Shown: piece by piece, positions 19,992-40,195 of the stretch
Numbering within the stretch: the stretch's first letter is position 1
How the letters are laid out: the number at the start of each line of letters is the position of its first letter
Assembly (NCBI RefSeq): GCF_044357305.1
Contig: NZ_JBIKPS010000009.1
Span: forward strand, 20,032 to 84,031
Length of the DNA: 64,000 nucleotides
Reading direction: 5' to 3'
From: Flavobacterium sp.
Lineage (GTDB): Bacteria > Bacteroidota > Bacteroidia > Flavobacteriales > Flavobacteriaceae
The notes under the pieces: generated by a model
Database searches by the model: none
What the model was told of the DNA's origin: nothing
What the model saw: the letters and a program-made list of their open reading frames with translations, nothing else
Translations under genes and position numbers: made by a program

Positions 19992-20002
19992 TTATAGAAT
20001 AG

Positions 20003-21244
20003 ATGGAGAATATTGCATTAATCGACTCGTTCTCAGAGTTTAAAGACGATAAACTTATTGATAGAGTAACGCTTATGGCGATTTTAGAAGATGTTTTTAG
20101 AAATGCTTTAAAAAAGAAGTACGGTTCTGATGACAACTTTGATATTATCATTAACCCCGATAAAGGGGATATGGAAATTTGGAGACGAAGAGTTATCGTT
20201 GCAGATGATGATTTAGATCTAGAAAATGAAGAAATTACCTTAACGGACGCTCGAAAAATAGAATCTGATTTTGAAATTGGAGAAGAAGTTTCGGAAGAAG
20301 TTAAATTAATAGATTTAGGTAGAAGAGCTATTCTAGCGTTACGTCAAAATCTTATTTCTAAAATTCACGAACACGATAATACCAATCTTTACAAACAATT
20401 TAAAGATATTATTGGCGAAATTTATACTGCCGAAGTACACCACGTACGTCCAAGAGTTGTAATTTTAGTGGATGATGACGGAAACGAAATTGTATTGCCT
20501 AAAGAAAAACAAATTCCATCCGATTTCTTCCGCAAAGGAGATAACGTAAAAGGTATTATAGAAAGCGTTGAATTAAAAGGAAATAAACCTCAAATTATTA
20601 TGTCTAGAACTTCTGAAAAGTTCTTAGAAAAATTATTTGAACAAGAAATTCCAGAAGTATTCGATGGTTTAATTATGATTAAAAAAGTAGTTCGAATTCC
20701 TGGTGAAAAAGCAAAAGTAGCTGTAGATTCTTATGACGATAGAATTGATCCAGTTGGTGCTTGTGTTGGTATGAAAGGATCTCGTATTCACGGAATTGTT
20801 CGTGAATTAGGAAACGAAAATATTGACGTTATCAACTACACCACTAATGCTTCTTTATTAATTACAAGAGCCTTGAGCCCAGCTAAAGTTTCTTCAGTTA
20901 AAATTAACGAAGAGACCATGCACGCTGAAGTGTTTTTGAAACTAGAAGAAGTTTCTAAAGCTATTGGTCGTGGCGGTCAAAACATCAAATTAGCTGGTTT
21001 ATTAACTGGTTACGAATTAGATGTTATTAGAGAAGGAAGCACAGTTGAAGATGATGATGTTGAATTAACCGAATTTTCTGATGAAATTGATGGATGGATT
21101 ATTGACGAATTTGCTAAAATTGGCTTAGATACTGCAAGAAGTATCTTGAAACAAGACGTAGCCGATTTAGCGAGAAGAACCGATTTAGAAGAAGAAACAA
21201 TACAAGAAGTAATGCGCATATTGAAAGAGGAGTTTGAAAACTAA
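20003..21244 (+). CDS. nusA: Transcription termination factor NusA
   Basis: S1 and KH domains; [14 protein letters not shown] and AIGRGGQN. Confidence 0.97.
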
Positions 21245-21282
21245 TTTTTCACCAAAATAAAAAAGAATTTATAAAAGATTTT

Positions 21283-24117
21283 ATGTCTGAAGAAAGAAAT
21301 ATTAGAATAAACAAAGTTTTAAGGGAATTAAACATTTCGTTAGAAAGAGCTATCGATTATCTTAAAGATAAGGGTATTGCTATTGATGCAAACCCAAATG
21401 CTAAGATATCCGATAAAGAGTTTGATATTCTACAAAATCAATTTGCCGGTGATAAGGGCAATAAAGAAGCGTCTAAAGGGGTTAGCGAAGAAATAAAGAA
21501 AGAAAAAGAGGCACTTCGTCTAGAAAGAGAAAAAGAAATTGAAGACAAGAAAAAACTAGAAGAAGAGCGTCAACGTCTGGAAGTTATTAAAGCTAAAGCT
21601 GTAGTTTCTAGCCCAAAACAAGTTGGAAAAATTGATTTAAATCCAAAAGCTTCTGTTTCTCCAAAGACTGAATCTGTAAAAATTCCGGAAGTTAAAACTC
21701 CAGAGGTTGCTGCTCCTATAGCAGAACCTGTGGCAGTCAAAACTCCAGAAGTTAAAGTTGCTCCTAAAGCACCTTCCGAAGAAAAGAAAGCGGCTCCAGT
21801 TGTAACTGAAAAACCAACACCAAAAGCGGAAGTTGCTGCGCCTAAGAAAGAAGTAGCAAAAGAAGAAAAAACAATTGCGGTTGAACCAGTTGTTGATGAA
21901 ACTCATACTACGCAATACCAAAGCCTTACAGGACCAATATTAACTGGTCAAAAAATTGATTTAACTCAATTCAACAAACCTAAAAAGAAAGTTGAAACCC
22001 CAAAAATTAACAGCGGAAGTAAGTTAGATCCAAATAAAAACAAACGTAAAAGAATCCCACCAAAACCAGGGGAAGCAAGACCAGGAACTCCTGGAGGAGC
22101 TGCTGGAGGTCCAAGACCACCGGGAACTGGAGGAAAATTTACTGCAAATAAACCAGGCGGTGGCGGTTTTGTTAAAGGAAACCGACCTGCTATTGTTCAA
22201 AAGGTAGAGCCTACAGAAGAAGAGGTTAAAAATCAAATTAAAGAAACGCTAGAAAGACTGCAAGGAAAAGGTTCTAAATCCAAAGCAGCTAAGTACAGAA
22301 GAGATAAAAGAGATACCCACCGTCAGCGTTCTGACGATGAGCAAAGAGCTATCGATGAAGGAAGCAAAACGATCAAAGTAACAGAATTTGTTACTGTTGG
22401 TGAAGTTGCTACCATGATGGATGTGCCAATTACTAAAGTTATTGGAACGTGTATGTCACTTGGAATCATGGTTACCATGAACCAACGTTTGGATGCAGAA
22501 ACCTTAACTATTGTTGCAGATGAATTTGGATATGAAGTAGAATTTATTACTACAGATCTAGAAGATTCTATGGAAGTGGTTGAAGAAAGAGAAGAAGATT
22601 TAGTTACTAGAGCGCCTATCGTAACCGTAATGGGTCACGTCGATCACGGTAAAACTTCGTTATTAGATAACATCCGTAAAGAAAATGTAATTGCAGGAGA
22701 ATCAGGAGGGATCACCCAACATATTGGTGCTTATGCAGTACAATTAGACAACGGACAAAAAATTACCTTCTTAGATACCCCTGGTCACGAGGCGTTTACC
22801 GCAATGCGTGCCCGTGGAGCGCAGGTTACCGATATTGCAATTATTGTGATTGCGGCGGATGATGACATCATGCCACAAACTAAAGAGGCTATCTCCCATG
22901 CTCAAGCAGCTGGAGTACCTATGATATTTGCTATCAATAAGGTAGATAAACCGCATGCAAATCCGGAGAAAATTAAAGAGAAATTAGCAGGAATGAACCT
23001 TCTTGTAGAGGACTGGGGTGGTAAATACCAATCGCATGATATTTCTGCAAAAACGGGATTGGGAGTTAAAGAACTTTTAGAAAAAGTTTTATTAGAAGCA
23101 GAAATATTAGATTTAAAAGCAAATCCAAATAAACCTGCCGTTGGAACTGTTGTGGAAGCACAATTAGATAAAGGTAGAGGATATGTTTCTACTATATTAG
23201 TACAATCTGGAACTTTAAAAGTTGGAGATTATGTATTAGCTGGTAAAAACCACGGTAAGGTAAAAGCAATGTACGATGAAAGAGGAAACAGCGTGAAAGA
23301 AGCTGGTCCTTCTACACCAATGTCTATTTTAGGATTGGACGGAGCGCCTACCGCTGGAGATAAATTCAACGTATTTGAAGATGAAAGAGAAGCGAAGTTA
23401 ATTGCTGCCAAACGTACGCAATTAATGAGAGAGCAATCGGTAAGAACCCAACGTCATATTACTTTGGCAGAAATTGGTCGTCGTATTGCACTTGGACAAT
23501 TTAAAGAATTGAACATTATCCTTAAAGGGGATGTGGATGGTTCTGTAGAAGCATTGTCTAACTCGTTCACTAAATTATCTACGGAAGAAATTCAAATCAA
23601 TATTATCCACAAAGGAGTTGGAGCAATTACCGAAACCGACGTTATGTTGGCTTCTGCTTCCGATGCGATCATTATCGGATTTAACGTTCGTCCTGCAGGA
23701 AATGCAAGACAACTTGCCGATAAAGAAGAAATTGATATCCGTAATTACTCCATTATCTACGATGCAATTGATGACTTGAAGGATGCAATGGAAGGAATGT
23801 TGTCACCAATAATGAAAGAAGAAGTAACCGGTACTGCCGAAATTAGAGAAACATTCAAGATCTCTAAAATTGGAACCATTGCAGGTTGTATGGTTACTGA
23901 TGGTAAAATATTCAGAAACTCTAAAATACGTATTATTCGTGAGGGAGTGGTGGTGTTTACAGGTGAGCTTACCGCATTAAAACGATTCAAAGACGACGTA
24001 AAAGACGTTTCTAAAGGATACGATTGTGGTATTCAAATAAAAAATTACAACGACATAGAGCAGTTGGATATTATTGAAGCTTTCCAGGAAGTAGAAGTAA
24101 AGAGAAAACAAAAATAG
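21283..24117 (+). CDS. infB: Translation initiation factor IF-2
   Basis: [16 protein letters not shown] and INKVD motifs; C-terminal GYDCGI. Confidence 0.98.
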
Positions 24118-24134
24118 TCTATAAGTATAAAGTT

Positions 24135-24163
24135 AAAAATCCCGAGCAATCGGGATTTTTTTT
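24135..24163 (+). terminator. Terminator after infB
   Basis: aaaaatcccga-gcaa-tcgggattttt plus a T-run. Confidence 0.75.
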
Positions 24164-24311
24164 GGACCTATTTTATAGAAGTAAATAATGCAAGATAGGT
24201 GATTTGAATTAGGTACTGTCTTTCGATGAAAGATATAGGAAGCCTTATTTATCCATAAAAAAAGCCCCATTAAGGGACTTTTTTCTTTTATAAATCAGAC
24301 GGGAATGAATT

Positions 24312-25187
24312 TTAGTTTCCGATAACTATGTTATAAGAATTACCGTTCACTGTGTATACAGCCAAGTTATCGCAGTCTCCGTTACCATAATCTAAAGTAG
24401 CAGAATGATTGTTTTTTGTAAATGTAATAACTCCTTCAACAAGTAGTGGTTTTTGTGTATTCATGCAACTCATTTTTGCTTTAAGTGGAGTTGTGATAGT
24501 ACTAGTAACAATTCCAGATGGATGAGTGGTTGTCCAATTTCCGGTTATGCTGTAAATATTATCAGAAAAAACATTTGGTGTACCATAACCTTCAATAATT
24601 TCTCTAGTTCTTGTACCAACTCTATGGTGGATTTCACCATTAATAGTTGTAGCTGTTAAATCCATGTTCATAACCACAATTGGATGACTTGGTGATGTTG
24701 CGGTAGCAACACTCATTGTTCTAGTAAATGATTTATCTCCTTCAATTTTAATAGTGTTATGATAGAAATTAACAAAACTATAATTTACAGTTTGACTTGC
24801 AGCAGTTGGATGATAGGTAAATGTTATAACAATTTTACCACTTACAAAATTATTGTTTGATAAAGTACATCCTGCGCCAAAATCAATTGTTTTAGTCACT
24901 TGGTCTCCATCAACTAAAGCAGTTCCAAAACTTGGTATTCTTGTAATTGTAGCACAAGCTGACAAAGCTACATCACCATTCTTATTTGAAAAAGAATTAG
25001 AATTTATATTGTTATATTGGTCTTCAACAATAGAACTTACATCATCACTTGCTAGATCAATTTTAGAACTAGATTGCGCCTCTTCTTTAGTCATAAAGGA
25101 ATTGTCTGAAGAATCATTTTTGCTACAACTAGCAAAGAAAAAAACAGCACTTAAAGCAGCCATTTTAATAAAAGATTTTGTTTTCAT
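24312..25187 (-). CDS. Hypothetical lipoprotein, probably surface exposed
   Basis: Lipobox FFASC followed by SKNDSSD, resembling the Bacteroidota lipoprotein export signal; Thr/Gly-rich beta-strand sequence with IDFGAGC and LDYGNGDCDN. Confidence 0.8.
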   Translation of the reverse strand: MKTKSFIKMAALSAVFFFASCSKNDSSDNSFMTKEEAQSSSKIDLASDDVSSIVEDQYNNINSNSFSNKNGDVALSACATITRIPSFGTALVDGDQVTKTIDFGAGCTLSNNNFVSGKIVITFTYHPTAASQTVNYSFVNFYHNTIKIEGDKSFTRTMSVATATSPSHPIVVMNMDLTATTINGEIHHRVGTRTREIIEGYGTPNVFSDNIYSITGNWTTTHPSGIVTSTITTPLKAKMSCMNTQKPLLVEGVITFTKNNHSATLDYGNGDCDNLAVYTVNGNSYNIVIGN

Positions 25188-25296
25188 AGATATAAATTTA
25201 GAATGTTATTTAAATAAGACTAGGTCAAATATAAATGGTTTAATCTTAAGATAAAAATTTATTTCAGATACTTTGATTATCGTATCTTTGAACGCA

Positions 25297-26274
25297 ATGA
25301 ATATTATTTCACAAATAAAACAACCCATTCAACTAGAAATGGAACTTTTTGAAAAAAAGTTCTACGAATCGATGTCTTCTAAGGTAGCGTTGCTTAATAG
25401 AATTACCTATTATATTGTGAACCGAAAAGGGAAACAAATGCGACCAATGTTTGTTTTCTTGACTGCCAAAATGATTTCTGGCGGGATGGTTAATGAACGA
25501 ACTTACAGAGGCGCTTGTGTTATTGAACTTATTCACACTGCAACATTGGTGCACGATGATGTGGTAGATGACAGTAACAGAAGAAGAGGATTTTTCTCTA
25601 TCAATGCCCTTTGGAAAAATAAAATTGCCGTTTTAGTTGGTGATTATTTACTTTCCAAAGGATTATTACTTTCTATAGATCATGGCGATTTTGATTTACT
25701 CCGAATTATCTCGGTTGCTGTGCGAGAAATGAGTGAAGGCGAATTACTTCAAATAGAAAAAGCACGACGATTAGATATTACGGAGGACATTTACTACGAA
25801 ATCATCCGCCAAAAAACAGCAACACTTATTGCTGCTTGTTGCGCCTTAGGAGCCAAATCCGTTTCGGAAGATGAATTTCAGGTGGAAACAATGCGTAAAT
25901 TTGGAGAACTCATAGGAATGGCTTTTCAAATAAAAGACGATTTATTCGATTATACCGATGAAGCCATAGGGAAACCAACTGGAATTGACATCAAAGAACA
26001 AAAAATGACTTTGCCGTTAATTCATGCTTTGAATAATTGTACCGATAAAGAAAAAAGCTGGTGCATCAATTCCATAAAAAACCACAACAAGGATAAAAAA
26101 CGAGTAAAAGAGGTAATCCAATTTGTGAAAGACCAAAACGGATTACACTATGCCGAACAAAAAATGGAGGAATTCCAGCACGAAGCACTCGCTTTAATTC
26201 AAAGCTTCCCCAATTCTATTTATAAAGATAGTTTGATTCTGATGGTGAACTATGTGATTGAAAGGAAAAAATAG
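25297..26274 (+). CDS. Polyprenyl diphosphate synthase (long-chain, probably for the menaquinone side chain)
   Basis: GKQMRP, HDDVVD..RRG, FQIKDD and GKPTG.D motifs. A TATCTTTG promoter at 25283-25290 supports the start at 25297. Confidence 0.93.
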   Translation: MNIISQIKQPIQLEMELFEKKFYESMSSKVALLNRITYYIVNRKGKQMRPMFVFLTAKMISGGMVNERTYRGACVIELIHTATLVHDDVVDDSNRRRGFFSINALWKNKIAVLVGDYLLSKGLLLSIDHGDFDLLRIISVAVREMSEGELLQIEKARRLDITEDIYYEIIRQKTATLIAACCALGAKSVSEDEFQVETMRKFGELIGMAFQIKDDLFDYTDEAIGKPTGIDIKEQKMTLPLIHALNNCTDKEKSWCINSIKNHNKDKKRVKEVIQFVKDQNGLHYAEQKMEEFQHEALALIQSFPNSIYKDSLILMVNYVIERKK

Positions 26275-26400
26275 TGTTCTGTATTCATTTTAAAGTGTTT
26301 TTTCAAAACCTGACAGGTTTTAAGTTACTTAATTGAAACAGTTTTTTTCTTATATTACCGAGCTTTTGCCTACTATTATTTAGTTTCCGAGATTTTATGA

Positions 26401-26457
26401 CTTTAGATGGAACGCGGATTGAACAGATGCTTTGCAACGCGGATCCAATAGCGGATT
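26401..26457. repeat. CGCGGAT repeat module, inverted relative to 3531-3586
   Basis: gatggaacgcggat..gatgctttgcaacgcggat matches the reverse complement of 3531-3586. Confidence 0.8.
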
Positions 26458-26516
26458 TGCAATCTGTGCCCACTATCAAAATCAAAAAAAAGAGTAACAT
26501 AAAAAAGTTTTTTTGT

Positions 26517-26639
26517 CTGAAGCGAAAGGCATGCGCATTTTAGTAAAGGCAATTCCCGCTTTTCGTTGCAATCTGTCATTGCGAGGAACGAAGCAATCTC
26601 ATAACAAAAATTGATATACGCAATGCCAGGATTTCCACT
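26517..26639. repeat. ~120-bp direct repeat, copy 1 (contains the GTCATTGCGAGG module)
   Basis: Aligns with 31956-32076 with about 7 differences by eye. Confidence 0.9.
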
Positions 26640-26721
26640 GCAAATAAAATTCATCGAACTCCGCTAAAAAAAATAGCAAAGTGAGATAATCGGGGCTAGA
26701 TTGGTTTTGTCTTTTGTGAAA

Positions 26722-28110
26722 TTAGTTGTCCAAATTAGCCATGATTTTAAACATTTCAACATTAGAAGTAAAATACCTATTCTCCATGCTTAATTCCGAT
26801 AATTGGGAACCCACCAAATTGTTTTCTCTTGAATTTATCAAAAACAGAGAGCTTTCTCCAAATGTAAACAATCGCTCTTCGGAGGTTAACATAGCATCGT
26901 AATCTTTAACCAAAGCCGAAATTAATTTGCGCTGTTTTACCAAAGAGTTGATTTCAATTTGTTGGGAAACAATTTTATTTTTTAATTGTACCCGTTCTAA
27001 ATCTAATGCAAATTGTGCATCTTGAATTTTAAATTTAGCCATTTGCAATCCGCCACGCTCTTTTCTTAAAAATAATGGATAACTAAAGTTTACGCCAATT
27101 TTAAAATTATCAAAGTTCGTAGAATTCCAATAACTAGGTTCCGATAAATAATGGTATCCCAAGTCTATTTTTGGCAATAAATTATTTCTTTTAAGATTGC
27201 GCTCCACTTCCAGTAGGGCAATTTTACTTTGTAAGGCATTTATTTTAGGATGATTTTCAATAGAAGTACTGGGCACTAGTAAATCATTAGTTTTTAAAGT
27301 TTCCTGAATAGTCAGTTCTAGTTTTTCTTCTGGAGTAATTCCATCTTGAATTTCCAAGGGCACATTGTTTTCTAACCATAAATAATTAGACAATTCAAGT
27401 TTGGATTTAGCTAATTTTAATTGGGAATCTTCTAAATTTAATTTTCTATTTCGTACTGTAATTCCAGCTTCAATGCTGTCTATTGCCGACTTGTCGCCAT
27501 TTTCAATTAAACTCGATACGGCATTATAGCGAACCTCGGCATTTTTTAAATAATTTTCATAAAGCTGCACTTGACTATAATTTAGTTTCCAATTAAAATA
27601 GGCTATCGAAGCAGCATACAAAACCTCAATAGATTGTAATTTTCGTTCTGCTTGACTCCATTGCAATTGAATTTTAGCCTTTTGCAAATCAGCCATTCGT
27701 TGATTGATTAATAATCCTTGTCCCAACGGAATGTTAATACCTAAAGAGCTTAAGCCTTTGTTTGGCAAAGTGTTTTCTGGGTTTAAATAAATCCCTTCGC
27801 TATTGTCAAAACCTGCTTTAACTTCAATTCCATACCAAGTTGGGATTTTGAAACTACTATTTAAAATTGAATAATAGGTTTTATCTTTAAATTGTTTTTT
27901 GTCAAAATCTACTTCTATTTTAGGGTCAAATCCTCCGCGGGCCATCATCAAATTAGCTTGCGCAGTATTGATTTGTAGATTTGCGCTTTTTACCATAGGG
28001 TGGTATTTTTTTACAAAACCTAAAAATTCATTGTAAGTAAGTTCATTGTCCTTTTTTTCTTGTCCAATCAAGGAAATGCTTATCAATAGAAAAACTAAAA
28101 TTTTCTTCAT
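26722..28110 (-). CDS. TolC family outer membrane efflux protein
   Basis: Signal peptide, two helical repeats, C-terminal GESSLFLINSRE; downstream of HlyD. Confidence 0.9.
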   Translation of the reverse strand: MKKILVFLLISISLIGQEKKDNELTYNEFLGFVKKYHPMVKSANLQINTAQANLMMARGGFDPKIEVDFDKKQFKDKTYYSILNSSFKIPTWYGIEVKAGFDNSEGIYLNPENTLPNKGLSSLGINIPLGQGLLINQRMADLQKAKIQLQWSQAERKLQSIEVLYAASIAYFNWKLNYSQVQLYENYLKNAEVRYNAVSSLIENGDKSAIDSIEAGITVRNRKLNLEDSQLKLAKSKLELSNYLWLENNVPLEIQDGITPEEKLELTIQETLKTNDLLVPSTSIENHPKINALQSKIALLEVERNLKRNNLLPKIDLGYHYLSEPSYWNSTNFDNFKIGVNFSYPLFLRKERGGLQMAKFKIQDAQFALDLERVQLKNKIVSQQIEINSLVKQRKLISALVKDYDAMLTSEERLFTFGESSLFLINSRENNLVGSQLSELSMENRYFTSNVEMFKIMANLDN

Positions 28111-31132: not shown

Positions 31133-31804
31133 TTATCTTAAAGTAGTTTCAATTAAATTGAGGTAAAAGGCGGTTGGAGAATTATCTTTATCACAATCTG
31201 TTATTGTTTTTAAATGATCTTTTAAAAAATGTTGGTGTAATGCTCCTTCAATTATTGACGAGGCTAATGTTTTTGCAAAAATATAATTTGGGTTTACCTC
31301 ATGTATCATTTCTATTATTCTATTTATTACTCTTTTGTAAATTAGGAAGAAACCTTCTTTATTTTCCTCATCTATTTCTTTGGTAATAATGGTTTTAGTA
31401 AATTCCTGAATGATTATTTTATTCAAAATAGACTCGTTAATATGCAACGTGGTGCTGTCATCTTCCACCTTTTCAGTCACTATGGTAATAGCCTTTTTCA
31501 ATCGCTCCATAGGATTTGAAACATTATTTGTAGCAAAAACCATTTTGTATTCTATCCAACCCCAATACCAAGACGATAGGTATAGCATTAGTTTGTGTTT
31601 GTTTTCAAAATAGCGATAGATAGAGCTTTCGTTAGATTGAATTCGTTCTCCCAATTTTTTGAAGGTAAAATTTTCAAAGCCTATTTCATCAATTAAAAGA
31701 ATACTTTGTTCGATAATTTTTTTTCCTAATTCAGAGGTCTCCGGATTTTTAACATATAGTTTTGAATTCACCGAAATTATAATATTAGAAAGCATGTTTT
31801 GCAT
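31133..31804 (-). CDS. TetR/AcrR family transcriptional regulator
   Basis: GFENFTFKKLG..IQSNESSIYRYFENK helix-turn-helix. Confidence 0.9.
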   Translation of the reverse strand: MQNMLSNIIISVNSKLYVKNPETSELGKKIIEQSILLIDEIGFENFTFKKLGERIQSNESSIYRYFENKHKLMLYLSSWYWGWIEYKMVFATNNVSNPMERLKKAITIVTEKVEDDSTTLHINESILNKIIIQEFTKTIITKEIDEENKEGFFLIYKRVINRIIEMIHEVNPNYIFAKTLASSIIEGALHQHFLKDHLKTITDCDKDNSPTAFYLNLIETTLR

Positions 31805-31955
31805 AAAATGATATATTTATACGCAAAGATAATAGTAATACTATTAAAAAAGAAATTTTAACTTTTAATTATAACAAAAGAGATTCAAATTAATGAACCT
31901 CTTTTGTTTTTCTATATCCTAATCGGTTTTTAAACCTCTTAGTTATTTTTTTTAA

Positions 31956-32076
31956 CTGAAGCGAATGGCTTGCGCATTTTAGAAAATGCAATTCCCGCTT
32001 TTCGTTGCAATCTGTCATTGCGAGGGACGAAGCAATCTCATAACAAATTGATATACGCAATGCCAGGATTTCCACT
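31956..32076. repeat. ~120-bp direct repeat, copy 2
   Basis: Near-identical to 26517-26639. Confidence 0.9.
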
Positions 32077-32090
32077 TTAATCGGGGCTAT

Positions 32091-32391
32091 TTAGCAATGG
32101 TATTGAATAGAGGCACTATTTCTAAGAAACTTCTGCTTCAAGTTGTCATTCTGACCAAGGAAGAATCCCAAACAAAACATAAAAAAACCACCAAAATCAC
32201 TTTTGATGGTTTCTGTTATTTCAATAAGTAAAACCGTTGTGTTACTTCGTGCAACCTTTGTGGCTCTTTGTGTTACAGTATAAAGTACTTTCACAAAGTT
32301 TCACTAAGAATTAAACTGTAATAGCTTGAGTTTATTTGCAAATCCGCCTATCGTTTTATTGATCCGAAGTCAGGAGACTTCGGATAGCGGG
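32091..32391. repeat. ~300-bp direct repeat, copy A
   Basis: About 11 differences from 33480-33780 by eye; ends in the hairpin atccgaagtc-agga-gacttcggat followed by agcggg. Confidence 0.95.
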
Positions 32392-32429
32392 GGAGCTAGA
32401 CAGGTTTTGTCTTTTGTAAAATCATTAGT

Positions 32430-32463
32430 TTACAACAACGAATGTTTTGTCATTACTTCTGGT
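32430..32463 (-). pseudogene. Relic duplicate of the gpmI 3' end (encodes PEVMTKHSLL-stop)
   Basis: 31/34 nt identical to 38678-38711 in the same orientation. Confidence 0.85.
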
Positions 32464-32502
32464 ATTTTTAAACACAAATTTAATTAGAAGAAGTAGGATA
32501 GA

Positions 32503-33111
32503 TTATGCCTTCAATAGAATTAAATCATAATACATTAAACGAGTTTCTAATTTGGAATTAGTAGCTATTCCTGTAAACTCTTTTTCTTGTTCTTCACTAC
32601 TAAATAAAGGAATAAATTCGTTGTCAGAATAATATTTTAAAGGTCCAGATTCGTTATAAGAATCCACAACAATAAAACGGCAGCCAGTTTTATTTGAACC
32701 ATCAATGAACCAAGATTTAATAAAATCCATCAATTGTTTGCCTATTCTTTCCGTTTCCTCTTTTAGGAATCGGTAGTTTTTATTTACCCCAAGTCTTCCA
32801 ATTAAAACAGCAGGATAGGATTTCATTTGTTTCTGTCTCGGAATGTTTTGAATTATTTTTTTCTTTCGTGCATTAGGTAAAAGAAATGTTTTTATACTAT
32901 CGTTGGAAATAGTGAAAGCACACACAATAATTTCTGGAGTTGCATCTAAAGTAAAACAATAGGTTTTGCCCAATAATTCAGAGGAATAATTTAAGGCGTC
33001 ATTACAGAAAAAATCATTTAAATCGGTATTGTCACAATCAAAAGGTAGACATGAATTAATGACTTCGCTGTTATAGATTTTCAGCGTGCATTTATCGAGA
33101 AGAAAGCCCAA
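32503..33111 (-). CDS. GNAT-fold acetyltransferase, toxin-like
   Basis: FDCDNTDLNDFF, YPAVLIGRLGV and GCRFIVVDSY..YY..NEF resemble AtaT/TacT-type GNATs; TTG start. Confidence 0.8.
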   Translation of the reverse strand: MGFLLDKCTLKIYNSEVINSCLPFDCDNTDLNDFFCNDALNYSSELLGKTYCFTLDATPEIIVCAFTISNDSIKTFLLPNARKKKIIQNIPRQKQMKSYPAVLIGRLGVNKNYRFLKEETERIGKQLMDFIKSWFIDGSNKTGCRFIVVDSYNESGPLKYYSDNEFIPLFSSEEQEKEFTGIATNSKLETRLMYYDLILLKA

Positions 33112-33118
33112 TGTATAA

Positions 33119-33274
33119 TTATATTTTCGCTTTCGCTAAAATTTTAGACGCAACAACCGATTGCTTAGAAAAATCTACAGAAGATTTTTTTGCAGTATTT
33201 AAAGCAACTGCCGAAGTAAAAACTTGTGCAGGTTTGTCTCTTAAAACAGGTATTGATTTGATTGCAATAGCCAT
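33119..33274 (-). CDS. 51-aa protein upstream of the GNAT gene (putative antitoxin); missing from the ORF track
   Basis: Hand translation MAIAIKSIPVLRDKPAQVFTSAVALNTAKKSSVDFSKQSVVASKILAKAKI; a TACTTTTG promoter at 33296-33303; 7 nt to the GNAT start. Confidence 0.75.
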   Translation of the reverse strand: MAIAIKSIPVLRDKPAQVFTSAVALNTAKKSSVDFSKQSVVASKILAKAKI

Positions 33275-33443
33275 AATTAAATTAGTTTAATAATGCAAAA
33301 GTAAATTAATCATTAAAAATAACAATACAATGAACTAAAATTTAACAATATCTCCCCGCCAGTGTCATCCAACATAGGAGAAATCTCATAATAGTGACAG
33401 TATATCTGATAGCCTTGCGGGTGCCTATCCTCGAGATTTATTG

Positions 33444-33467
33444 ATCCGAAGTCTGGAGACTTCGGAT
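33444..33467. repeat. REP-like hairpin ATCCGAAGTC-N4-GACTTCGGAT (also at 32362-32385 and 33751-33774)
   Basis: Perfect 10-bp stem; three copies, each followed by AGCGGG. Confidence 0.85.
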
Positions 33468-33479
33468 AGCGGGAGCTAG

Positions 33480-33780
33480 TTAGCAATGGTATTGAATAGA
33501 GGCACTATTTCTAAGAAACTTCTGCTTCAAGTTGTCATTCTGACGAAGCAAGAATCCCAAACAAAACATAAAAAAACCACCAAAATCACTTTTGATGGTT
33601 TCTGTTATTTCAATAAGTAAAACCTTTGTGTTACTTCGTGCAACCTTTGTGGCTCTTTGTGTTACAGTATAAAGTTCTTTCACAAAGTTTCACTAAGATT
33701 TAAACTGCAATAGCTTGAGTTTATTTACAAATCTGCCTATCGTTTTATTGATCCGAAGTCAGGAGACTTCAGATAGCGGG
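33480..33780. repeat. ~300-bp direct repeat, copy B
   Basis: Offset of 1389 nt from copy A. Confidence 0.95.
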
Positions 33781-33781
33781 A

Positions 33782-33991
33782 GGTCAGTATAGAGTTTCGG
33801 TAAGACCTTATTGAGCTTCGGTAGGTCAGTATAGAGTTTCGGTAAGACCTTATAGAGCTACGGTAGGTCAATATAGGTTTTCGGTAGGTCAGTATAGAGT
33901 TTCGGTAGGTCAGTATAGAGCTTCGGTAGGTCAATATAGGTTTTCGGTAAGACCTTATAGAGCTTCGGTAAGTCAATATAGAGTTTCGGTA
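33782..33991. repeat. 10 x 21-bp tandem array
   Basis: Consensus GGTCAGT-ATAGAGT-TTCGGTA with recurring variants; every unit ends in CGGTA. Confidence 0.95.
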
Positions 33992-34050
33992 AGGCTTAAT
34001 GCTTTTTACATAAGGCTTAATGCTTTTTACATAAGGCTTAATGCCTTATA
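33991..34050. repeat. Second 21-bp tandem repeat, about 2.8 copies
   Basis: aaggcttaatgctttttacat twice, then aaggcttaatgccttata. Confidence 0.9.
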
Positions 34051-34127
34051 ATTTTGTTTTTTTTGCCACAGATTCTCACGGATGCCACGGATTTTTTAGA
34101 ATGCCACCGTTTTGACATTTAAACGTA

Positions 34128-34158
34128 AAAGCCACAAACGAATTTGTGGCCTTTAAAA
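34128..34158 (-). terminator. Probable terminator after the T9SS gene
   Basis: Stem gccacaaa/tttgtggc with a U-tract on the minus strand. Confidence 0.55.
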
Positions 34159-34176
34159 AAATACTAACTGAAACTT

Positions 34177-35862
34177 TTATTGTTTTACAATTTTAAAAAC
34201 CTGTTCTTTATTTTCAGTTTCTGCCTTAATAATATAATTGCCAGAAGGCAAAATAGTTAAATCCATATTGAACTCACTACTGTTCTTAAACTGATTAATT
34301 AACAATTGCCCAAGCACATTATAAACAGAAATTTGTTTTAGTATCTCATTAGATTTTATCGTTATAAAATCCTTAACTGGATTCGGGTTGAAATCAATCG
34401 TTAGTAATTGATTTTGATTAACTCCTAAACCTAGTGTTACAGTTATTGCTAATCTTGGACCTTCGCAACCATTAACTGTTTGACTAACATAATAAGTTGT
34501 ACCAGAAACTAAGGGAGTTGTATTTGAAATGGCACTATTTCCAGCGGAAGTGCTATACCATTGAATATTCGTCCCGGTCACAATAAGATTAGCTAGTGTG
34601 TTACCAGTACTAAATGTTTGACTTGAAGTTCCAGTCGGAGCACTCGTTGTATTTAGTATTGTAGCGCTTGTAGTTGAAGAACAGGAACCATTAGTAATTA
34701 CACAAGTATAACTTCCAGAAGCAGTAGCAGAATAAGTAGCTGACGTTGCTCCTGAAATAGTCACTCCGTCCTTTTTCCACTGATAACTGTTAGATGAGCC
34801 TGCAGGCACTGTTAATAGTTGAGACCCACAAAAAGAATTTGTTCCGTTAGGACTCATTACAAAAGAACTTGATAATACCGTTACATCCGATGTTTTTGTA
34901 CAACCTGATGAACTGTCTGTAACTTTAACGGCATAACTACCCGTAGCAGTAGGTAAATAATTGATATTTATTCCACTTACAATAGTATTTCCATTTAAAG
35001 TCCACTGATAGGTTAAATTAGTTCCTGAATTAGCAACCAAATTAAAATTACTTGAAGCACATACCAAAACCTGCCCAGAAGGAGTCATTGTTGCAATTGG
35101 TAATGGTTTAAATGTAATATTTATTGCGTCTGTATAAGTTGTGTTATCTAATGTCGCAGAAACACCATAATCGCCCGCTAATGTTGGAGTAAAGGTAACA
35201 GATTGTCCGTGAGTGCCATCAAACCAAGTAGGAGTAAATCCATTTGGCCCTGCATAATTTAGGGTTACAGGTGTATCAGGACAAATTTGTAACGCATCAC
35301 CTTCTTGAACTAAATTGGCATTAGGGTTCGCTCCATATGGAAAAACCACTTTTTTAAATAAAGGTCCCCAATTATTATTTACATCTTTTGCACGAATGTT
35401 AAATAATATTGGTCCTGAAGCAATATCCCAAGTGGCTTGAGTTCTAAAAATGGTTTCTACAGCCTCGTCAAGTGCACCGTCAAAAGCTACAATAGTAGTT
35501 CCGCTGCCTTCTCCTGGATCAAAATTACCAAAGAAATATTCAAACTTAGTAAGTTTTATTTGTCTTGAATTAGAAGTATTTGGCATAACAAACATAACTT
35601 TTTTGAAAATGGGACCCCATAAGTTACTTCCATCTTTTACCCTAATATTAAATAATACAGGTCCAATATTTGTTTGAGTATTAACATAATTTGCAATTAT
35701 ACTTTCCACCCTTTCATTAAACACTCCATCTTCTGCAATTAATATTGTACCGTTACCATTTCCAGGGTCAATAGTTCCCCAAAAATATTCTGCTGCAGTA
35801 ATTTTTTGCTGTGCATTAATACAACTGCCTACTAATAAAAATAATAGTATTAACTTTTTCAT
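34177..35862 (-). CDS. T9SS type-A CTD protein with two EYF..DPG.G.GT repeats and Ig-like domains
   Basis: Signal peptide; duplicated ~80-aa N-terminal unit; Thr/Ser-rich Ig-like modules; CTD FNPNPVKD..ISVYNVLGQ..LPSGNYIIK..VFKIVKQ. Confidence 0.88.
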   Translation of the reverse strand: MKKLILLFLLVGSCINAQQKITAAEYFWGTIDPGNGNGTILIAEDGVFNERVESIIANYVNTQTNIGPVLFNIRVKDGSNLWGPIFKKVMFVMPNTSNSRQIKLTKFEYFFGNFDPGEGSGTTIVAFDGALDEAVETIFRTQATWDIASGPILFNIRAKDVNNNWGPLFKKVVFPYGANPNANLVQEGDALQICPDTPVTLNYAGPNGFTPTWFDGTHGQSVTFTPTLAGDYGVSATLDNTTYTDAINITFKPLPIATMTPSGQVLVCASSNFNLVANSGTNLTYQWTLNGNTIVSGININYLPTATGSYAVKVTDSSSGCTKTSDVTVLSSSFVMSPNGTNSFCGSQLLTVPAGSSNSYQWKKDGVTISGATSATYSATASGSYTCVITNGSCSSTTSATILNTTSAPTGTSSQTFSTGNTLANLIVTGTNIQWYSTSAGNSAISNTTPLVSGTTYYVSQTVNGCEGPRLAITVTLGLGVNQNQLLTIDFNPNPVKDFITIKSNEILKQISVYNVLGQLLINQFKNSSEFNMDLTILPSGNYIIKAETENKEQVFKIVKQ

Positions 35863-35867
35863 ACTAC

Positions 35868-37208
35868 TTAATTTTTATGGTATCCTTTAGCTTTAATATC
35901 TATACTTTGACCAGGAAACAAATCCGTTGGCATATCTAAATCAAAAATAAACGCTTTGCTATTATTCGAGTTTGATGTCGGATTGTAATTTAATAGTGAA
36001 TATGGACCTCCATTTCTTCCCCTATCATTAATTGTTAAATCAATGTCGTAAAATTGGTGATTAGGATTTCCTCCATCAATTTCGTTAGCTGGTCCTTGAA
36101 TATTTGTTAAATTTAAAGGAGAACCAGATGTAGGGTTAATGAATGCTGTTTGAAGTCCATTATATGAAAAATCAAAAAATCCTGGAACGTTAATATTGGG
36201 AAAATTATTAGACCCTAAAGAAACCCAGCCATAACACATGAAATTAGGAGGCATGGTTGGATTGTTTTGCCCATTTATATAATACCATCCACTAGGTCCA
36301 TTACAACACCAGTTCCATGAAGGCATCCATTCATTGTAGCTCATAGGTGAGTTTGGCAAAGTAGTATAACTTTGTTGATAAAATAAACCACAATTACCAC
36401 TAGATGCTGTCACAAACCCATTAATAAATTTATTACTAGAAAAAATAATATTGTATCTTGGCACACTTGAAATGGAAAAATTTAACACACAATTATCTGT
36501 AAATTCATTATTTGTTATGTAGTTTTTTATATTTTCATTTGCATTCCATCTTCTAAAAGATAAATCCCGCATAGAATTATTTGCTACTACCACAGGATAA
36601 TCATTATTGAAAACCCCAATCAAAAACTGTACTTGATTTGCTATTATTAAATTACGTTCAGTTATGTTAGGATTATCTTGAGGCTCATCCATTAGAGAAA
36701 TTTGTTTTGTTATATTCTTTATTACATTACCATTTCTAAAAATAATCCCGTTTGTAATTTGATTTTCAATAAAATTCACTTGATAATAATCATTATCAAA
36801 CGATAAATATTCCGAACTACAATTTATAATACTTATTTTACTTCTGTTTGAAGCTATGCCTCCTATTATTGGACTAGCATTAAATGAATAAATACCTAAA
36901 TTAAATCCTATTATTTCTAATTTCATTCCTGCAAAACCACTAATAATAATATTTGCATTGAAATTAATTGTTGTGCCAGGAGTTTGGGGCATTATCTGTA
37001 GTGATTTTGAAATTGTTAACTCTGGTTCATTATAGGTTGTAGAAGCAATAATTATTCTATCCCCGTTTACTGCAGCATTTACAGCGGAAGTAATTGAAGT
37101 GAATAAAGTAGTTCCATTACCTGCGGAAAGGTTGGGGTCAACAAAACGGTCTGTAGCAAAAATGCTGGTAGCCGTAAGAAAAGTTAAAATTGTAAAGATT
37201 TTTTTCAT
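35868..37208 (-). CDS. Secreted protein with a predicted right-handed beta-helix; no T9SS CTD
   Basis: Signal peptide; FTSITSAVNAAVNGDRIII..YNE start typical of parallel beta-helices; Asn-rich; IDGGNP..DIDLTINDRG.NGG near the C-terminus. Confidence 0.7.
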   Translation of the reverse strand: MKKIFTILTFLTATSIFATDRFVDPNLSAGNGTTLFTSITSAVNAAVNGDRIIIASTTYNEPELTISKSLQIMPQTPGTTINFNANIIISGFAGMKLEIIGFNLGIYSFNASPIIGGIASNRSKISIINCSSEYLSFDNDYYQVNFIENQITNGIIFRNGNVIKNITKQISLMDEPQDNPNITERNLIIANQVQFLIGVFNNDYPVVVANNSMRDLSFRRWNANENIKNYITNNEFTDNCVLNFSISSVPRYNIIFSSNKFINGFVTASSGNCGLFYQQSYTTLPNSPMSYNEWMPSWNWCCNGPSGWYYINGQNNPTMPPNFMCYGWVSLGSNNFPNINVPGFFDFSYNGLQTAFINPTSGSPLNLTNIQGPANEIDGGNPNHQFYDIDLTINDRGRNGGPYSLLNYNPTSNSNNSKAFIFDLDMPTDLFPGQSIDIKAKGYHKN

Positions 37209-37274
37209 GGTTATTTTATGTAAAATTGATTTTTTTTATTCGTGTATAATTTTGGAAAGCTTAAATAGACAACA

Positions 37275-37595
37275 TTAATTATTACGGTCACAGAAAACTA
37301 AAGATTTACATATTCGTTTACTTTTTGGACATTTTCTTAAACCTAAAGAAAAGGATTTGTTTTTTATAAGTTGACTAACTACATTATTTACTGACTGACA
37401 AGTGTTTGCATGACCTATTACATTTTTATGAGTTCTTATCCAAACATCGAGTGATTTTGGTTTTGGATGTAGACTTAAGATTACTTTATTTGATCCTATA
37501 ATCATATATTCAATTTTGCTTTCTTTGAAGTGTGCTATTAAATCCTGAATAGGAATTGTTTTATTATTAGCATGTGGTAATATTATTTGTTCCAT
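37275..37595 (-). CDS. Hypothetical 106-aa basic protein with C-terminal CPxSxRxC
   Basis: ATG start, no competing ORF, same strand as the downstream pair; TAAGTTTG promoter-like box at 37693-37700. Confidence 0.65.
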   Translation of the reverse strand: MEQIILPHANNKTIPIQDLIAHFKESKIEYMIIGSNKVILSLHPKPKSLDVWIRTHKNVIGHANTCQSVNNVVSQLIKNKSFSLGLRKCPKSKRICKSLVFCDRNN

Positions 37596-37783
37596 TTTCC
37601 ATTTTTTATTAATTAGCCCGCCTAATGAGTTTCGTATAAATATTTTTACATTTATTTATTGTCTTGAAATAGTTGCTTTACGTAATTTCCTACAAACTTA
37701 CAATTGGAATTAAGAAAAAAACTTTTGTAAAATTTCTTTAATTGAATAAAAACGTCTAATTTTGAACTATTAATACTTTTATC

Positions 37784-38134
37784 ATGATACAACAAGCAGA
37801 AATTAAGATTAAACAAATAAGAGAGTTGAAAAATATTACACAAGAATATGTGGCTCAAAAGTTGGGCTTATCTACTCGGGCGTATAGTAAAATAGAATCG
37901 GGTGAAACGCAATTAACCATCAATAGGTTAAATGAAATTTCTGAGGCATTAGGTGTTGGTTCTATGGAAGTATTGGGTTTTGATGATAAACAGGTTTTTA
38001 ACAATTGCAAACAAGATGGGTATATTGGAATAAATCATATTAATATTCCAGATAAATTAATTCAGCAATACGAAGAAACTATTCAGTCTCTTAAAGAACA
38101 AATACAATTAATGAAATTGCTACAAGATAAATAA
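37784..38134 (+). CDS. XRE family HTH transcriptional regulator
   Basis: IKQIRELKNITQEYVAQKLGLSTRAYSKIESG HTH with a C-terminal coiled coil. Confidence 0.92.
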   Translation: MIQQAEIKIKQIRELKNITQEYVAQKLGLSTRAYSKIESGETQLTINRLNEISEALGVGSMEVLGFDDKQVFNNCKQDGYIGINHINIPDKLIQQYEETIQSLKEQIQLMKLLQDK

Positions 38135-38299
38135 TTTTTTAAGTTACTCTTACAGTGCCAAATATATTCCGTTACAGTAGGAATCTCATAAATAGAGTCA
38201 GTAAATCCTATTGTATTATCTGTTTTTTTTGTATAACTTTGGGATGTATTCGTTAACAGCTTGTTAGTGAAAACGGCAGGTAGTATTAAATTAAAAATA

Positions 38300-38542
38300 A
38301 TGGAAGCACAACAATTACAAACCGATAAGGTAAATATAATCAACTGGATTAATCAGTTACAAGATAATTCACTTATTGAGCAAATAAAATCCATGATGGT
38401 ATCTGATATTTGTTTGTTGTCCAATGAACAAAAAAACGCTATAGACGAAGCCTTAAAATCTATAGAAAAAGAAGGAACTACTCCGCACAATGCTGTAATG
38501 GAAGAAACTAAAAAACGTTTCCCTCACCTTTATAATAGATAA
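38300..38542 (+). CDS. Small protein resembling addiction-module antitoxins
   Basis: KVNIINWINQLQD..LIEQIK, LSNEQKNAIDEAL.SIE and PHNAVM pattern; TAACTTTG promoter at 38234-38241. Confidence 0.65.
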   Translation: MEAQQLQTDKVNIINWINQLQDNSLIEQIKSMMVSDICLLSNEQKNAIDEALKSIEKEGTTPHNAVMEETKKRFPHLYNR

Positions 38543-38548
38543 ATTCGG

Positions 38549-38608
38549 ATGGAGATTTCTTGGTCGAAACTAGCAAAAATCGATGCTAGAATAATTATCA
38601 AGATGTAG
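38549..38608 (+). pseudogene. Truncated RelE/ParE-like toxin stub
   Basis: MEISWSKLAKI resembles the start of RelE/ParE toxins (compare MTVIWTSIAKK at 52452); stops after 19 codons. Confidence 0.5.
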
Positions 38609-38623
38609 GTAAATTTACTTTAT

Positions 38624-38652
38624 AAAAAAAACTGGCAATTGCCAGTTTTTTT
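38624..38652. terminator. Bidirectional terminator
   Basis: aaaaaaaactggcaattgccagttttttt. Confidence 0.8.
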
Positions 38653-38677
38653 ATACTATTAATATTTTAATACTATT

Positions 38678-40195
38678 CTACAACAACGAATGTCTTGTCA
38701 TTACGTCTGGTTTTGCAACCCCCATTAATTCTAAAATAGTAGGAGCAATATCCCCAAGAACGCCATCGTGAATGGTTTTCAATTCTTTATCTACCAAAAT
38801 AATGGGCACAGGGTTGGTAGTATGCGCCGTATTTGGTGAACCATCTGGGTTAATCATCGTTTCGCAATTTCCGTGGTCGGCAATGATTATCGTGGTGTAA
38901 TTGTTTTCAAGAGCCGCCTCAACAACTTCTTTTACACAAGCATCTACCGCTTCGCAAGCTTTTATAGCAGCAGCCATTACGCCAGTATGTCCCACCATAT
39001 CGCCATTGGCAAAATTTAGGCATACAAAATCTACTTCTCCTTTTTTAAGTTCGGGAATTAAAGCATCTTTCAATTCAAAGGCGCTCATTTCGGGTTGTAA
39101 ATCGTAGGTGGCTACTTTTGGAGAATTGCGTAAAATTCTAGTTTCTCCCACAAACGGAATCTCTCTTCCGCCAGAAAAGAAAAACGTAACGTGAGGGTAT
39201 TTTTCGGTTTCGGCAATACGAATTTGGGTTTTACCCGCCTTTTCTAAAATCTCTCCTAGCGTTTCGGTAAGGTTGTCTTTGTCGTAAATTACATGAACGT
39301 TTTGGTACGTATCATCATAATTGGTCATGGTAACATAATACAAATTCATTTTGTGCATGTTGAATTCGTGCATATCTTTTTGCGAAAGCACTTCGGTCAA
39401 CTCCCGACCTCTATCCGTTCGGAAATTAAAGAAAATAACCACATCGTCTTCTTCTATTTTTGCTAATGGAACGCCATTGGCATCTACCATAACAATAGGT
39501 TGCAAGAATTCATCGGTTACATTTTCGGCATAACTTTTTTGGATGCTTTCTACAGCATTAATAGAGGGAGTTCCTTCATTTTCAACCAATACATCGTACG
39601 CCAATTTTACTCGTTCCCAACGTTTGTCCCGGTCCATAGCATAATAACGACCAATGATGGTAGCAATTTTTGCATTGGAACCTTTCATGTGGTTTTCCAA
39701 ATTGGCAATATCTTTCGCAGCCGATTTAGGGTCTACGTCGCGCCCATCGGTAAAGGCATGTACGAATACTTTTTGCAAACCAAAGTCTTTGGCAGCATCC
39801 AACAATCCGTACAAATGCGAAGTATGTGAGTGCACGCCGCCATTAGAAACTAATCCTAAAAAATGTACTTTTTTGTTGTGGTCTTTGGCATATTGAAACG
39901 CATCCAAAAGAGGCTTTTCTTGGTTCATGGTTTTATTTTGAACCGCCAAATTTATCTTAGCCAAATCTTGGTATACAATTCGTCCGGCACCCAAATTCAT
40001 GTGGCCTACTTCGGAATTTCCCATTTGTCCTTCGGGCAATCCAACATTTAAACCATCGGTTCTAAGTTGTGCGCTAGGGTATTTGGTATATAAACTATTT
40101 ATAAAAGGAATAGTAGCATTATCTATAGCAGATACTTTTGGATCGGGAGATTTCCCCCATCCGTCTAGAATCATTAAAATTACTTTCTTGTTCAT
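38678..40195 (-). CDS. gpmI: 2,3-bisphosphoglycerate-independent phosphoglycerate mutase
   Basis: ILDGWG, GQMGNSEVGH, GRYYAMDRD, AETEKYPH, DMVGHTG, ADHGN and HTTNPVP motifs. Confidence 0.97.
   Translation of the reverse strand: MNKKVILMILDGWGKSPDPKVSAIDNATIPFINSLYTKYPSAQLRTDGLNVGLPEGQMGNSEVGHMNLGAGRIVYQDLAKINLAVQNKTMNQEKPLLDAFQYAKDHNKKVHFLGLVSNGGVHSHTSHLYGLLDAAKDFGLQKVFVHAFTDGRDVDPKSAAKDIANLENHMKGSNAKIATIIGRYYAMDRDKRWERVKLAYDVLVENEGTPSINAVESIQKSYAENVTDEFLQPIVMVDANGVPLAKIEEDDVVIFFNFRTDRGRELTEVLSQKDMHEFNMHKMNLYYVTMTNYDDTYQNVHVIYDKDNLTETLGEILEKAGKTQIRIAETEKYPHVTFFFSGGREIPFVGETRILRNSPKVATYDLQPEMSAFELKDALIPELKKGEVDFVCLNFANGDMVGHTGVMAAAIKACEAVDACVKEVVEAALENNYTTIIIADHGNCETMINPDGSPNTAHTTNPVPIILVDKELKTIHDGVLGDIAPTILELMGVAKPDVMTRHSLL

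Follow-up and report, generated by a model that had tools for sequence, protein, structure and literature searches.

A duplicated gpmI 3' end bordering an integrase-free, mosaic island in a freshwater Flavobacterium: a possible decayed integrated element

In the genome of a freshwater Flavobacterium (genome G000; RefSeq assembly GCF_044357305.1) the end of gpmI, the gene for 2,3-bisphosphoglycerate-independent phosphoglycerate mutase, occurs twice: about 6.2 kb beyond the intact gene its last 34 nucleotides (nt) return in direct orientation. How did this second end come to lie there, and was the DNA between the two copies brought in by an integrating element? The locus was analyzed in a 64,000-nt stretch of contig NZ_JBIKPS010000009.1 (positions 20,032 to 84,031), here called the window, to which all coordinates refer unless another contig is named, and was compared with related genomes and environmental sequences. 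In the reading preferred here, to which about even chances are given, the segment 32464-38677 is what remains, decayed and remodelled, of a circular element after its Campbell-style integration at the gpmI 3' end, comparable to a cis-mobilizable element (CIME). The features on which the question turns are the following (aa, amino acids; att, attachment site).

38678..40195, minus strand: gpmI, intact, 505 aa (Pfam iPGM_N 4.3e-83, Metalloenzyme 1.2e-78)
38678..38711, minus strand: gpmI-side copy of the 34-nt gene end, attL-like, including the stop codon
32464..38677: inserted segment between the copies, 6214 nt, absent from the empty-site relative
32430..32463, minus strand: relic copy of the gpmI 3' end, attR-like, the ancestral end with the ancestral Glu codon

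The relic at 32430-32463 (TTACAACAACGAATGTTTTGTCATTACTTCTGGT) is a direct-orientation copy of 38678-38711 (CTACAACAACGAATGTCTTGTCATTACGTCTGGT) with 31 of 34 positions identical. With up to three mismatches allowed, the window contains these two matches only, and none of 100 dinucleotide shuffles contained any 34-mer match of that quality, indicating that none is expected by chance. Ungapped extension lengthens the duplication to 41 nt at 88% identity (32426-32466 versus 38674-38714). In the whole 3.28-Mb genome the relic query matched the gpmI end only and a third copy was not found. The duplication had been proposed in an earlier, sequence-only reading of this stretch and is confirmed; the 34-mer is not a dispersed repeat. 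The duplicated stretch comprises the final ~35 nt of gpmI including the stop codon and the gene stays intact, so that the direct repeats include the target gene's end and the gene is restored, as in integrative elements. The relic translates as (I)PEVMTKHSLL-stop and the gpmI end as KPDVMTRHSLL-stop, as had been described. The three changes had been called conservative. Glu (GAA) is present in gpmI of all close relatives and Asp is derived in gpmI of the present genome; the relic retains the older state, the gene itself having changed. Since Glu is ancestral and Asp arose in the gene, the differences are no sign of selection. Orthologues of gpmI were present in 39 of 41 relatives.

An empty site (attB) of the kind expected for integrative elements was found in locus L034 (genome G418, metagenome-assembled genome (MAG) CANFZM01), whose gpmI is 93% identical to that of the present genome. 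Here the gpmI end ...CAGAAGTAATGACAAGACATTCGTTGTTGTAG runs straight into ACTAGTGATTTCACAAAAGACAAAACC, a sequence base-identical to the relic plus flank of a second relative, G066 (MAG CANGCT01). The relic is therefore the original gene end, and it follows that the current last ~35 nt of gpmI, with the terminator behind them, arrived with the inserted DNA. DNA of the XRE regulator, toxin-antitoxin (TA), GNAT-like and type IX secretion system (T9SS) genes of the island, described below, was not found anywhere in the L034 genome. The sequence-only reading had named gpmI joined directly to the flank of the relic as the arrangement to look for, and L034 provides it.

G066 carries the same relic around a 3.7-kb version of the island. 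The order is gpmI, an intact ParE-family toxin gene, antitoxin, XRE, a Fib_succ_major open reading frame (ORF), repeats, a 51-aa ORF, a 202-aa GNAT-like ORF, the relic and a Flavo-1-type repeat; the T9SS pair, the 106-aa ORF and the 21-nt arrays of the present genome are lacking. A sliding-window comparison of G066 and L034 along gpmI revealed no step in identity that would mark a donor segment. Another G066 contig, C145 (L030/L038), was considered as an empty site and rejected: it carries another gpmI 3' part, whose downstream region differs. This 3' part is 94% identical to that of G000, and the contig probably stems from a second strain in the same bin (MAG contamination 7%). When 401 congeners were scanned with a degenerate gpmI-end pattern, two copies on one contig and strand were found only in the present genome and G066. 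A second gpmI end in G356 belongs to one of two complete gpmI-DUF5916 loci on different contigs, without a relic (C2:28149 and C6:1431964, L031 and L032; a duplication or a mixed assembly), and a second match in G400 is unrelated sequence.

The DNA between the copies had been taken as one 6.2-kb island. It is a mosaic with changing cargo instead, made up in the present genome as follows, from the gpmI side to the relic (HTH, helix-turn-helix).

38632..38645: palindromic hairpin CTGGCAATTGCCAG, flanked by an A-run and a T-run (read from the sequence)
38549..38625, plus strand: remnant of a RelE/ParE-family toxin gene, 211-nt internal deletion at about 38583/38584 (from alignment)
38300..38542, plus strand: putative antitoxin, 80 aa from ATG 38300; the ORF has 93 aa from TTG 38261
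37784..38134, plus strand: XRE-family HTH regulator, 116 aa (Pfam HTH_3 1e-15)
37275..37595, minus strand: 106-aa ORF, no assigned function
35868..37208, minus strand: 446-aa ORF, variable cargo (no family match)
34177..35862, minus strand: 561-aa secreted protein with a T9SS C-terminal sorting domain, variable cargo (Por_Secre_tail 1.4e-11, TIGR04183 4.7e-13)
33735..34050: 21-nt tandem repeat arrays
33472..33780: second copy of a ~300-nt dispersed element, 96% identical to 32083-32391
33119..33274, minus strand: 51-aa ORF, upstream partner of the 202-aa gene (pair kept together in L104-L109)
32503..33111, minus strand: 202-aa GNAT-like protein, stop codon 39 nt from the relic

The gpmI-side end (terminator, ParE, antitoxin, XRE) is constant among the variants; the far end is formed by the 51-aa/202-aa pair. 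The middle cargo consists of the 106-aa, 446-aa and 561-aa ORFs in the present genome, of a 222-aa OGG-like ORF with the 446-aa and 561-aa ORFs in L046, of 244-, 417- and 562-aa ORFs in L041, of Fib_succ_major and Lcl_C ORFs in L059, and of the single Fib_succ_major ORF in G066. The T9SS pair, absent from the 3.7-kb G066 version, lies on a different contig in G419; the 446-aa ORF is missing from the G066 island and has a homologue on another contig in G419. The position of the 106-aa ORF is taken by the unrelated OGG-like ORFs of 222 aa (L046) or 244 aa (L041), and a truncated OGG-like protein was ruled out as its origin because no similarity was found. Deletions are frequent. In L046 positions 32387-32492 are gone, the relic included, and in L059 positions 32395-32980, comprising the relic and most of the GNAT-like gene; two more deletion joints were seen on low-depth contigs of lake runs. 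One joint, 31866>38610 in run X5, was considered as a native adjacency of gpmI and the downstream TetR gene and rejected, as a deletion derivative: it retains the ParE 3' end and filler resembling a tandem-repeat unit.

The gene content given by the sequence-only reading stands broadly. The T9SS sorting domain is present in the 561-aa protein only of the so-called T9SS pair, the ParE remnant is to be added, and neither the 202-aa protein nor the 93-aa antitoxin ORF matched a Pfam or NCBIfam profile. The GNAT label rests solely on 3062 homologues of the 202-aa protein, several of which are named N-acetyltransferase or GNAT by NCBI. The 51-aa protein likewise had no Pfam or NCBIfam match. Homologues of the 51-aa/202-aa pair (3062, 70-98% identity) are spread across genera of the Flavobacteriaceae, and homology ends at the start and stop codons. 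Elsewhere the pair occurs within or near mobile or variable DNA: in L104 it closes the distal side of an int-HTH_17-AAA_25 element, in L106 a GIY-YIG ORF lies between it and a tRNA-Val gene ~540 nt away, and in L109 it adjoins DpnI/Dam genes. No convincing att repeats were found around the int-to-GNAT element of L104. The putative antitoxin gene is located immediately upstream of the ParE-family gene in every variant. The toxin gene is intact (95 aa) in G066, L037, L041, L059 and L060, and in the present genome the antitoxin and XRE genes are. Homologues of the toxin are named RelE/ParE by NCBI and JGI and more distant ones contain PF05016; the 95-aa protein itself has no Pfam match. An identical XRE protein adjoins gpmI on 20 environmental contigs. 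The hairpin at 38632-38645 is kept in all island-bearing relatives and, as read from the sequence, is a bidirectional terminator common to gpmI and the converging XRE-antitoxin-toxin operon. No tRNA gene was found near the island.

Relic and boundaries are the same in G000 and G066, while their gpmI genes have diverged by ~7%, which points to a single old event; the insertion is old and predates about 7-9% gpmI divergence. The XRE-TA module adjoins gpmI in every other sampled lineage of the clade (G000, L059, L060, G066, L037 (= G420) and L041), and the outgroup L035 (G419, contig C16), with a gpmI only 91% identical, has a 48-nt XRE 3' fragment (98% identity) about 125-170 nt after gpmI, the rest of the island being gone at that place. 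For these reasons the empty site of L034 is read as a secondary loss. The simplest reading is one old insertion, followed in the L034 lineage by an exact loss between the copies; the crossover would lie within AGAAGTAATGACAAGACA. Trees back a secondary loss in part: L034 pairs with G066 in the gpmI tree (support 93/95 in one tree, 88/95 in another) and in a six-taxon tree of 3.8 kb of flank (97/96), and an eight-taxon flank tree is unresolved. In a tree of the XRE-antitoxin region (37700-38560) L059 groups with L037 (100/100), whereas in both flanks (gpmI and DUF5916) it groups with G000 (100/100). This conflict shows recombination between lineages inside the island.

Under the preferred reading, the incoming circle would have shared about 35 nt with the gpmI 3' end, and one crossover inside this stretch would have yielded two direct copies. 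The gpmI-side copy, with the bidirectional terminator of the element behind it, would have become the new gene end; the far copy, the relic, would be the original end of the chromosomal gene, still joined to its original downstream Flavo-1-type repeat. An operon would have converged on the attP from either side, the 51-aa/GNAT-like pair on one and XRE-antitoxin-ParE on the other, and the circle junction would read GNAT tail, 35-nt core, AATAGTATT and terminator. Such a layout is plausible: a small TA-like module forms each end of the island, and the two converge on the core and on a terminator that they share. A recombination module, if ever present, would have been lost later. The middle cargo has been turned over through recombination among lineages, small repeats have inserted beside the relic, many imprecise deletions have eroded the island, and one lineage would have lost it exactly between both copies.

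Several results weigh against this origin. No integrase or other recombinase was found in at least eight island variants (including G000, L029 = G066 contig C10, L041, L043, L046 and L059; PF00589 was among the domains searched), so that the island lacks an integrase of its own, as had been stated earlier. Eleven clear tyrosine recombinases are encoded in the genome, all on other contigs; a twelfth, weaker match lies on the contig of the island, about 48 kb away. With a hidden Markov model built from these eleven, which recovered all eleven in a control, no tyrosine recombinase was detected in the gpmI downstream flanks of 60 congeners (up to 12 kb; 40 of them 12 kb). Integrase-bearing elements at the same position, which the sequence-only reading had suggested looking for, are thus missing from this sample. 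Among the 401 congeners the duplicated gpmI end is confined to this lineage, and no cognate integrative and conjugative or integrative and mobilizable element (ICE/IME) with the same att specificity was found there or in the 60 flanks, a limited sampling. The gpmI-end pattern did not match viral contigs, and the stretch from XRE to the gpmI end matched nothing in phage and plasmid collections; a scan of metagenome contigs gave one unrelated locus only. Neither a circle junction nor an exact attL x attR joint was present in the assembled Logan contigs of four lake runs, in which contigs hide rare forms. The GC content of the island (28-37%) equals that of its flanks. Finally, recombination inside the island, as judged from the trees, makes the choice between loss and gain less secure. 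The claim that gpmI is an integration site holds as far as an insertion at the gpmI end is concerned, as the empty site indicates; its use as the attachment site of a recombinase is unproven, with none of the 60 congeners carrying an integrase element there. No paper treating gpmI as an integration site was found, and its end as a present-day integration site is unproven. An integrase gene at C1:26818-28053 has a copy of the post-relic module ~330 nt away, which was dismissed as a coincidence, since the module belongs to a repeat family of at least 18 copies. Five tyrosine recombinase genes lie within about 62 kb on contig C30 (144204-206740), possibly in one or more integrated elements.

The main rival is homology-facilitated illegitimate recombination, regarded as possible, if on the unlikely side. 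A linear fragment from a Flavobacterium donor, consisting of the gpmI 3' part and its native neighbours (terminator and ParE-antitoxin-XRE through to the GNAT-like pair), would have been anchored inside gpmI and joined at its far end 35 nt before the recipient stop codon, stranding the relic; no element, attP or integrase is needed. That no recombinase occurs at the locus in any variant or congener examined, that the event has a single origin among the 401 congeners and that the composition of the island is native all fit this explanation well, and the integrity of the gene would be kept automatically. The locus is moreover prone to recombination, with cargo swaps between lineages, incongruent trees and many imprecise deletions, and on its left side the relic tapers off across a few bases (AA-T-ACCAG versus AAAACCAG), as could happen at a microhomology joint. 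However, a donor-type arrangement without the relic was not found, L059 and L046 having lost theirs through clear secondary deletions, and the exact loss in L034 would then require RecA recombination between the 35-nt copies, which is possible. A duplicated terminal gene segment at an island border arises far more often from site-specific integration, with attB sites in tRNA genes and gene 3' ends. Sequence alone cannot separate a decayed element from illegitimate recombination.

The same final structure as in the preferred reading would result if a circle, a plasmid or an excised DNA circle, had carried an earlier-acquired short gpmI fragment and had integrated Campbell-style through RecA, without a dedicated recombinase, with the loss in L034 as the reverse homologous event. 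This proposal accounts for the missing integrase and the copies could have begun identical over about 35 nt, but such a length comes close to the minimum at which RecA recombination is efficient, and no plasmid with island DNA was found in the plasmid collection; it is entertained with considerable doubt. It is thought quite unlikely that the island is still mobile, with the 35-nt gpmI end still functioning as the attachment site of a recombinase whose gene lies elsewhere in these genomes or of an unrecognised mechanism tied to the end modules, and with the empty site of L034 as a product of active excision and not of a rare homologous deletion. A target-site duplication, with the two nicks of a transposase- or casposase-like enzyme staggered by about 35-41 nt, would likewise suit copies that may have been identical at first. 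The length is unusual for known transposons, the island ends have no terminal inverted repeats, no variant contains a transposase or Cas1 gene and enzyme families of this type are absent from the genomes of the lineage, which makes this very improbable. Chance similarity or an assembly artefact is scarcely credible in view of the shuffles, none of which gave a match, of the same arrangement assembled independently in several lake metagenomes (L043, 99.9-100% identity) and in the MAG G066, and of the even contig depth across the island in four lake metagenome runs.

How does the island compare with known systems? CIMEs occur in streptococci, for example in Streptococcus thermophilus, where they lie at the fda 3' end. 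Measured against the definition of a CIME (Guedon et al. 2017; PMC5704250), the island has kept attL- and attR-like ends and lacks integration and transfer genes. As in CIMEs, the direct repeats include the 3' end of a glycolytic housekeeping gene, which is restored. Unlike in CIMEs, no cognate ICE or IME is known or was found here, the derivation from one is inferred, the host belongs to another phylum, and the unit is blurred by cargo turnover and repeat invasions. The island works like a CIME, yet it cannot be confidently filed as one. With tyrosine-recombinase islands and prophages in the 3' ends of tRNA or protein genes it shares a second copy of the target's last tens of bases, a relative with an exact empty site, and an XRE regulator and TA modules close to its ends, but here an integrase, a compositional anomaly and any sign of recent mobility are lacking. 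Homology-facilitated illegitimate recombination has been described in Acinetobacter, Pseudomonas stutzeri and Streptococcus pneumoniae. Its products resemble the present locus in having foreign DNA beside a homologous anchor gene and a stranded recipient piece at the joint; they differ in being laboratory events with known donors, whereas no donor arrangement is known here. Flexible genomic islands of aquatic bacteria occupy the same chromosomal position in different strains, with conserved borders and strain-specific cargo. The island likewise has the same position in strains, conserved borders and cargo exchanged by recombination, but at one of its borders the founding insertion has left its record in the form of a duplicated gene end.

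The exact empty site and the several natural variants make the locus a record of how, in an abundant lineage of freshwater Flavobacterium, a variable region was founded and remodelled next to a core gene of glycolysis. If a recombinase acts on the gpmI-end site, a new attB/integrase pair would become available in a group with few genetic tools. As things stand, the locus neatly exemplifies a decayed island, which is a known phenomenon and not a new mechanism.

The sequence beyond the relic, whose flank at 32429 had been treated as unique, is the start of a dispersed repeat. The features on this side, all with a strand except the inserted element, are:

32392..32429, minus strand: first part of a dispersed Flavo-1-type repeat, directly after the relic stop codon
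32083..32391: ~300-nt dispersed element inserted into the Flavo-1-type repeat (29 genome matches)
31987..32092, minus strand: remainder of the Flavo-1-type repeat (RF01705, 58.1 bits, gathering 42, E 6e-11)
31823..31907, minus strand: genus-type gpmI terminator hairpin (31877-31905) and TetR promoter/operator, homologous to the short spacer between gpmI and TetR in congeners
31133..31804, minus strand: TetR-family regulator, first gene of a TetR-ABC-HlyD-TolC operon (TetR_N)

Only dispersed repeats lie between the relic and the old terminator. The Flavo-1 RNA motif was matched over the full length of the model at 58.1 bits, above the Rfam gathering threshold of 42. Its first module (ACAAAAGACAWAACC...) has at least 18 copies in the genome and begins right behind stop codons, both at the gpmI relic and at tolC (26688-26730). 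A ~120-nt repeat matching Flavo-1 stands on both sides of the TetR-ABC-HlyD-TolC operon (31987-32092 and 26508-26639). The two copies of the ~300-nt element (32083-32391 and 33472-33780, 96% alike) bracket the relic and the 51-aa/202-aa pair, and a 39-nt hairpin module (ATCCGAAGTC..GACTTCGGAT) is present three times in the region.

In several congeners the TetR gene directly follows gpmI, with a gap of 119-132 bp in six of them; the gap is 0.9-8.7 kb in other congeners and 6.9 kb in the present genome. The short congener spacer consists of the terminator hairpin and the TetR promoter/operator, which here still lie beside TetR (31823-31907). Insertions that separate gpmI from TetR in more distant congeners (G003, 5.2 kb; G002, 8.7 kb; G011, G013, G023, L039 and L033) were rejected as comparable islands: they contain ordinary genes, without an integrase and without a copy of their own gpmI end, and reflect ordinary differences in gene order. 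A weak alignment of 38610-38677 to the DNA downstream of gpmI in G013 and G014 was set aside as AT-rich similarity, the stretch being partly the ParE 3' end. Beyond the relic, G066 (L029, contig C10, 9000-19001) and L034 continue with acetyl-CoA hydrolase and map, on to rimP-nusA, and have no TetR operon there. The present genome continues (window 20000-26700 side) with the TetR operon, then polyprenyl synthetase and infB-nusA in the other orientation. The different downstream order would imply a rearrangement with its breakpoint at the Flavo-1 repeats.

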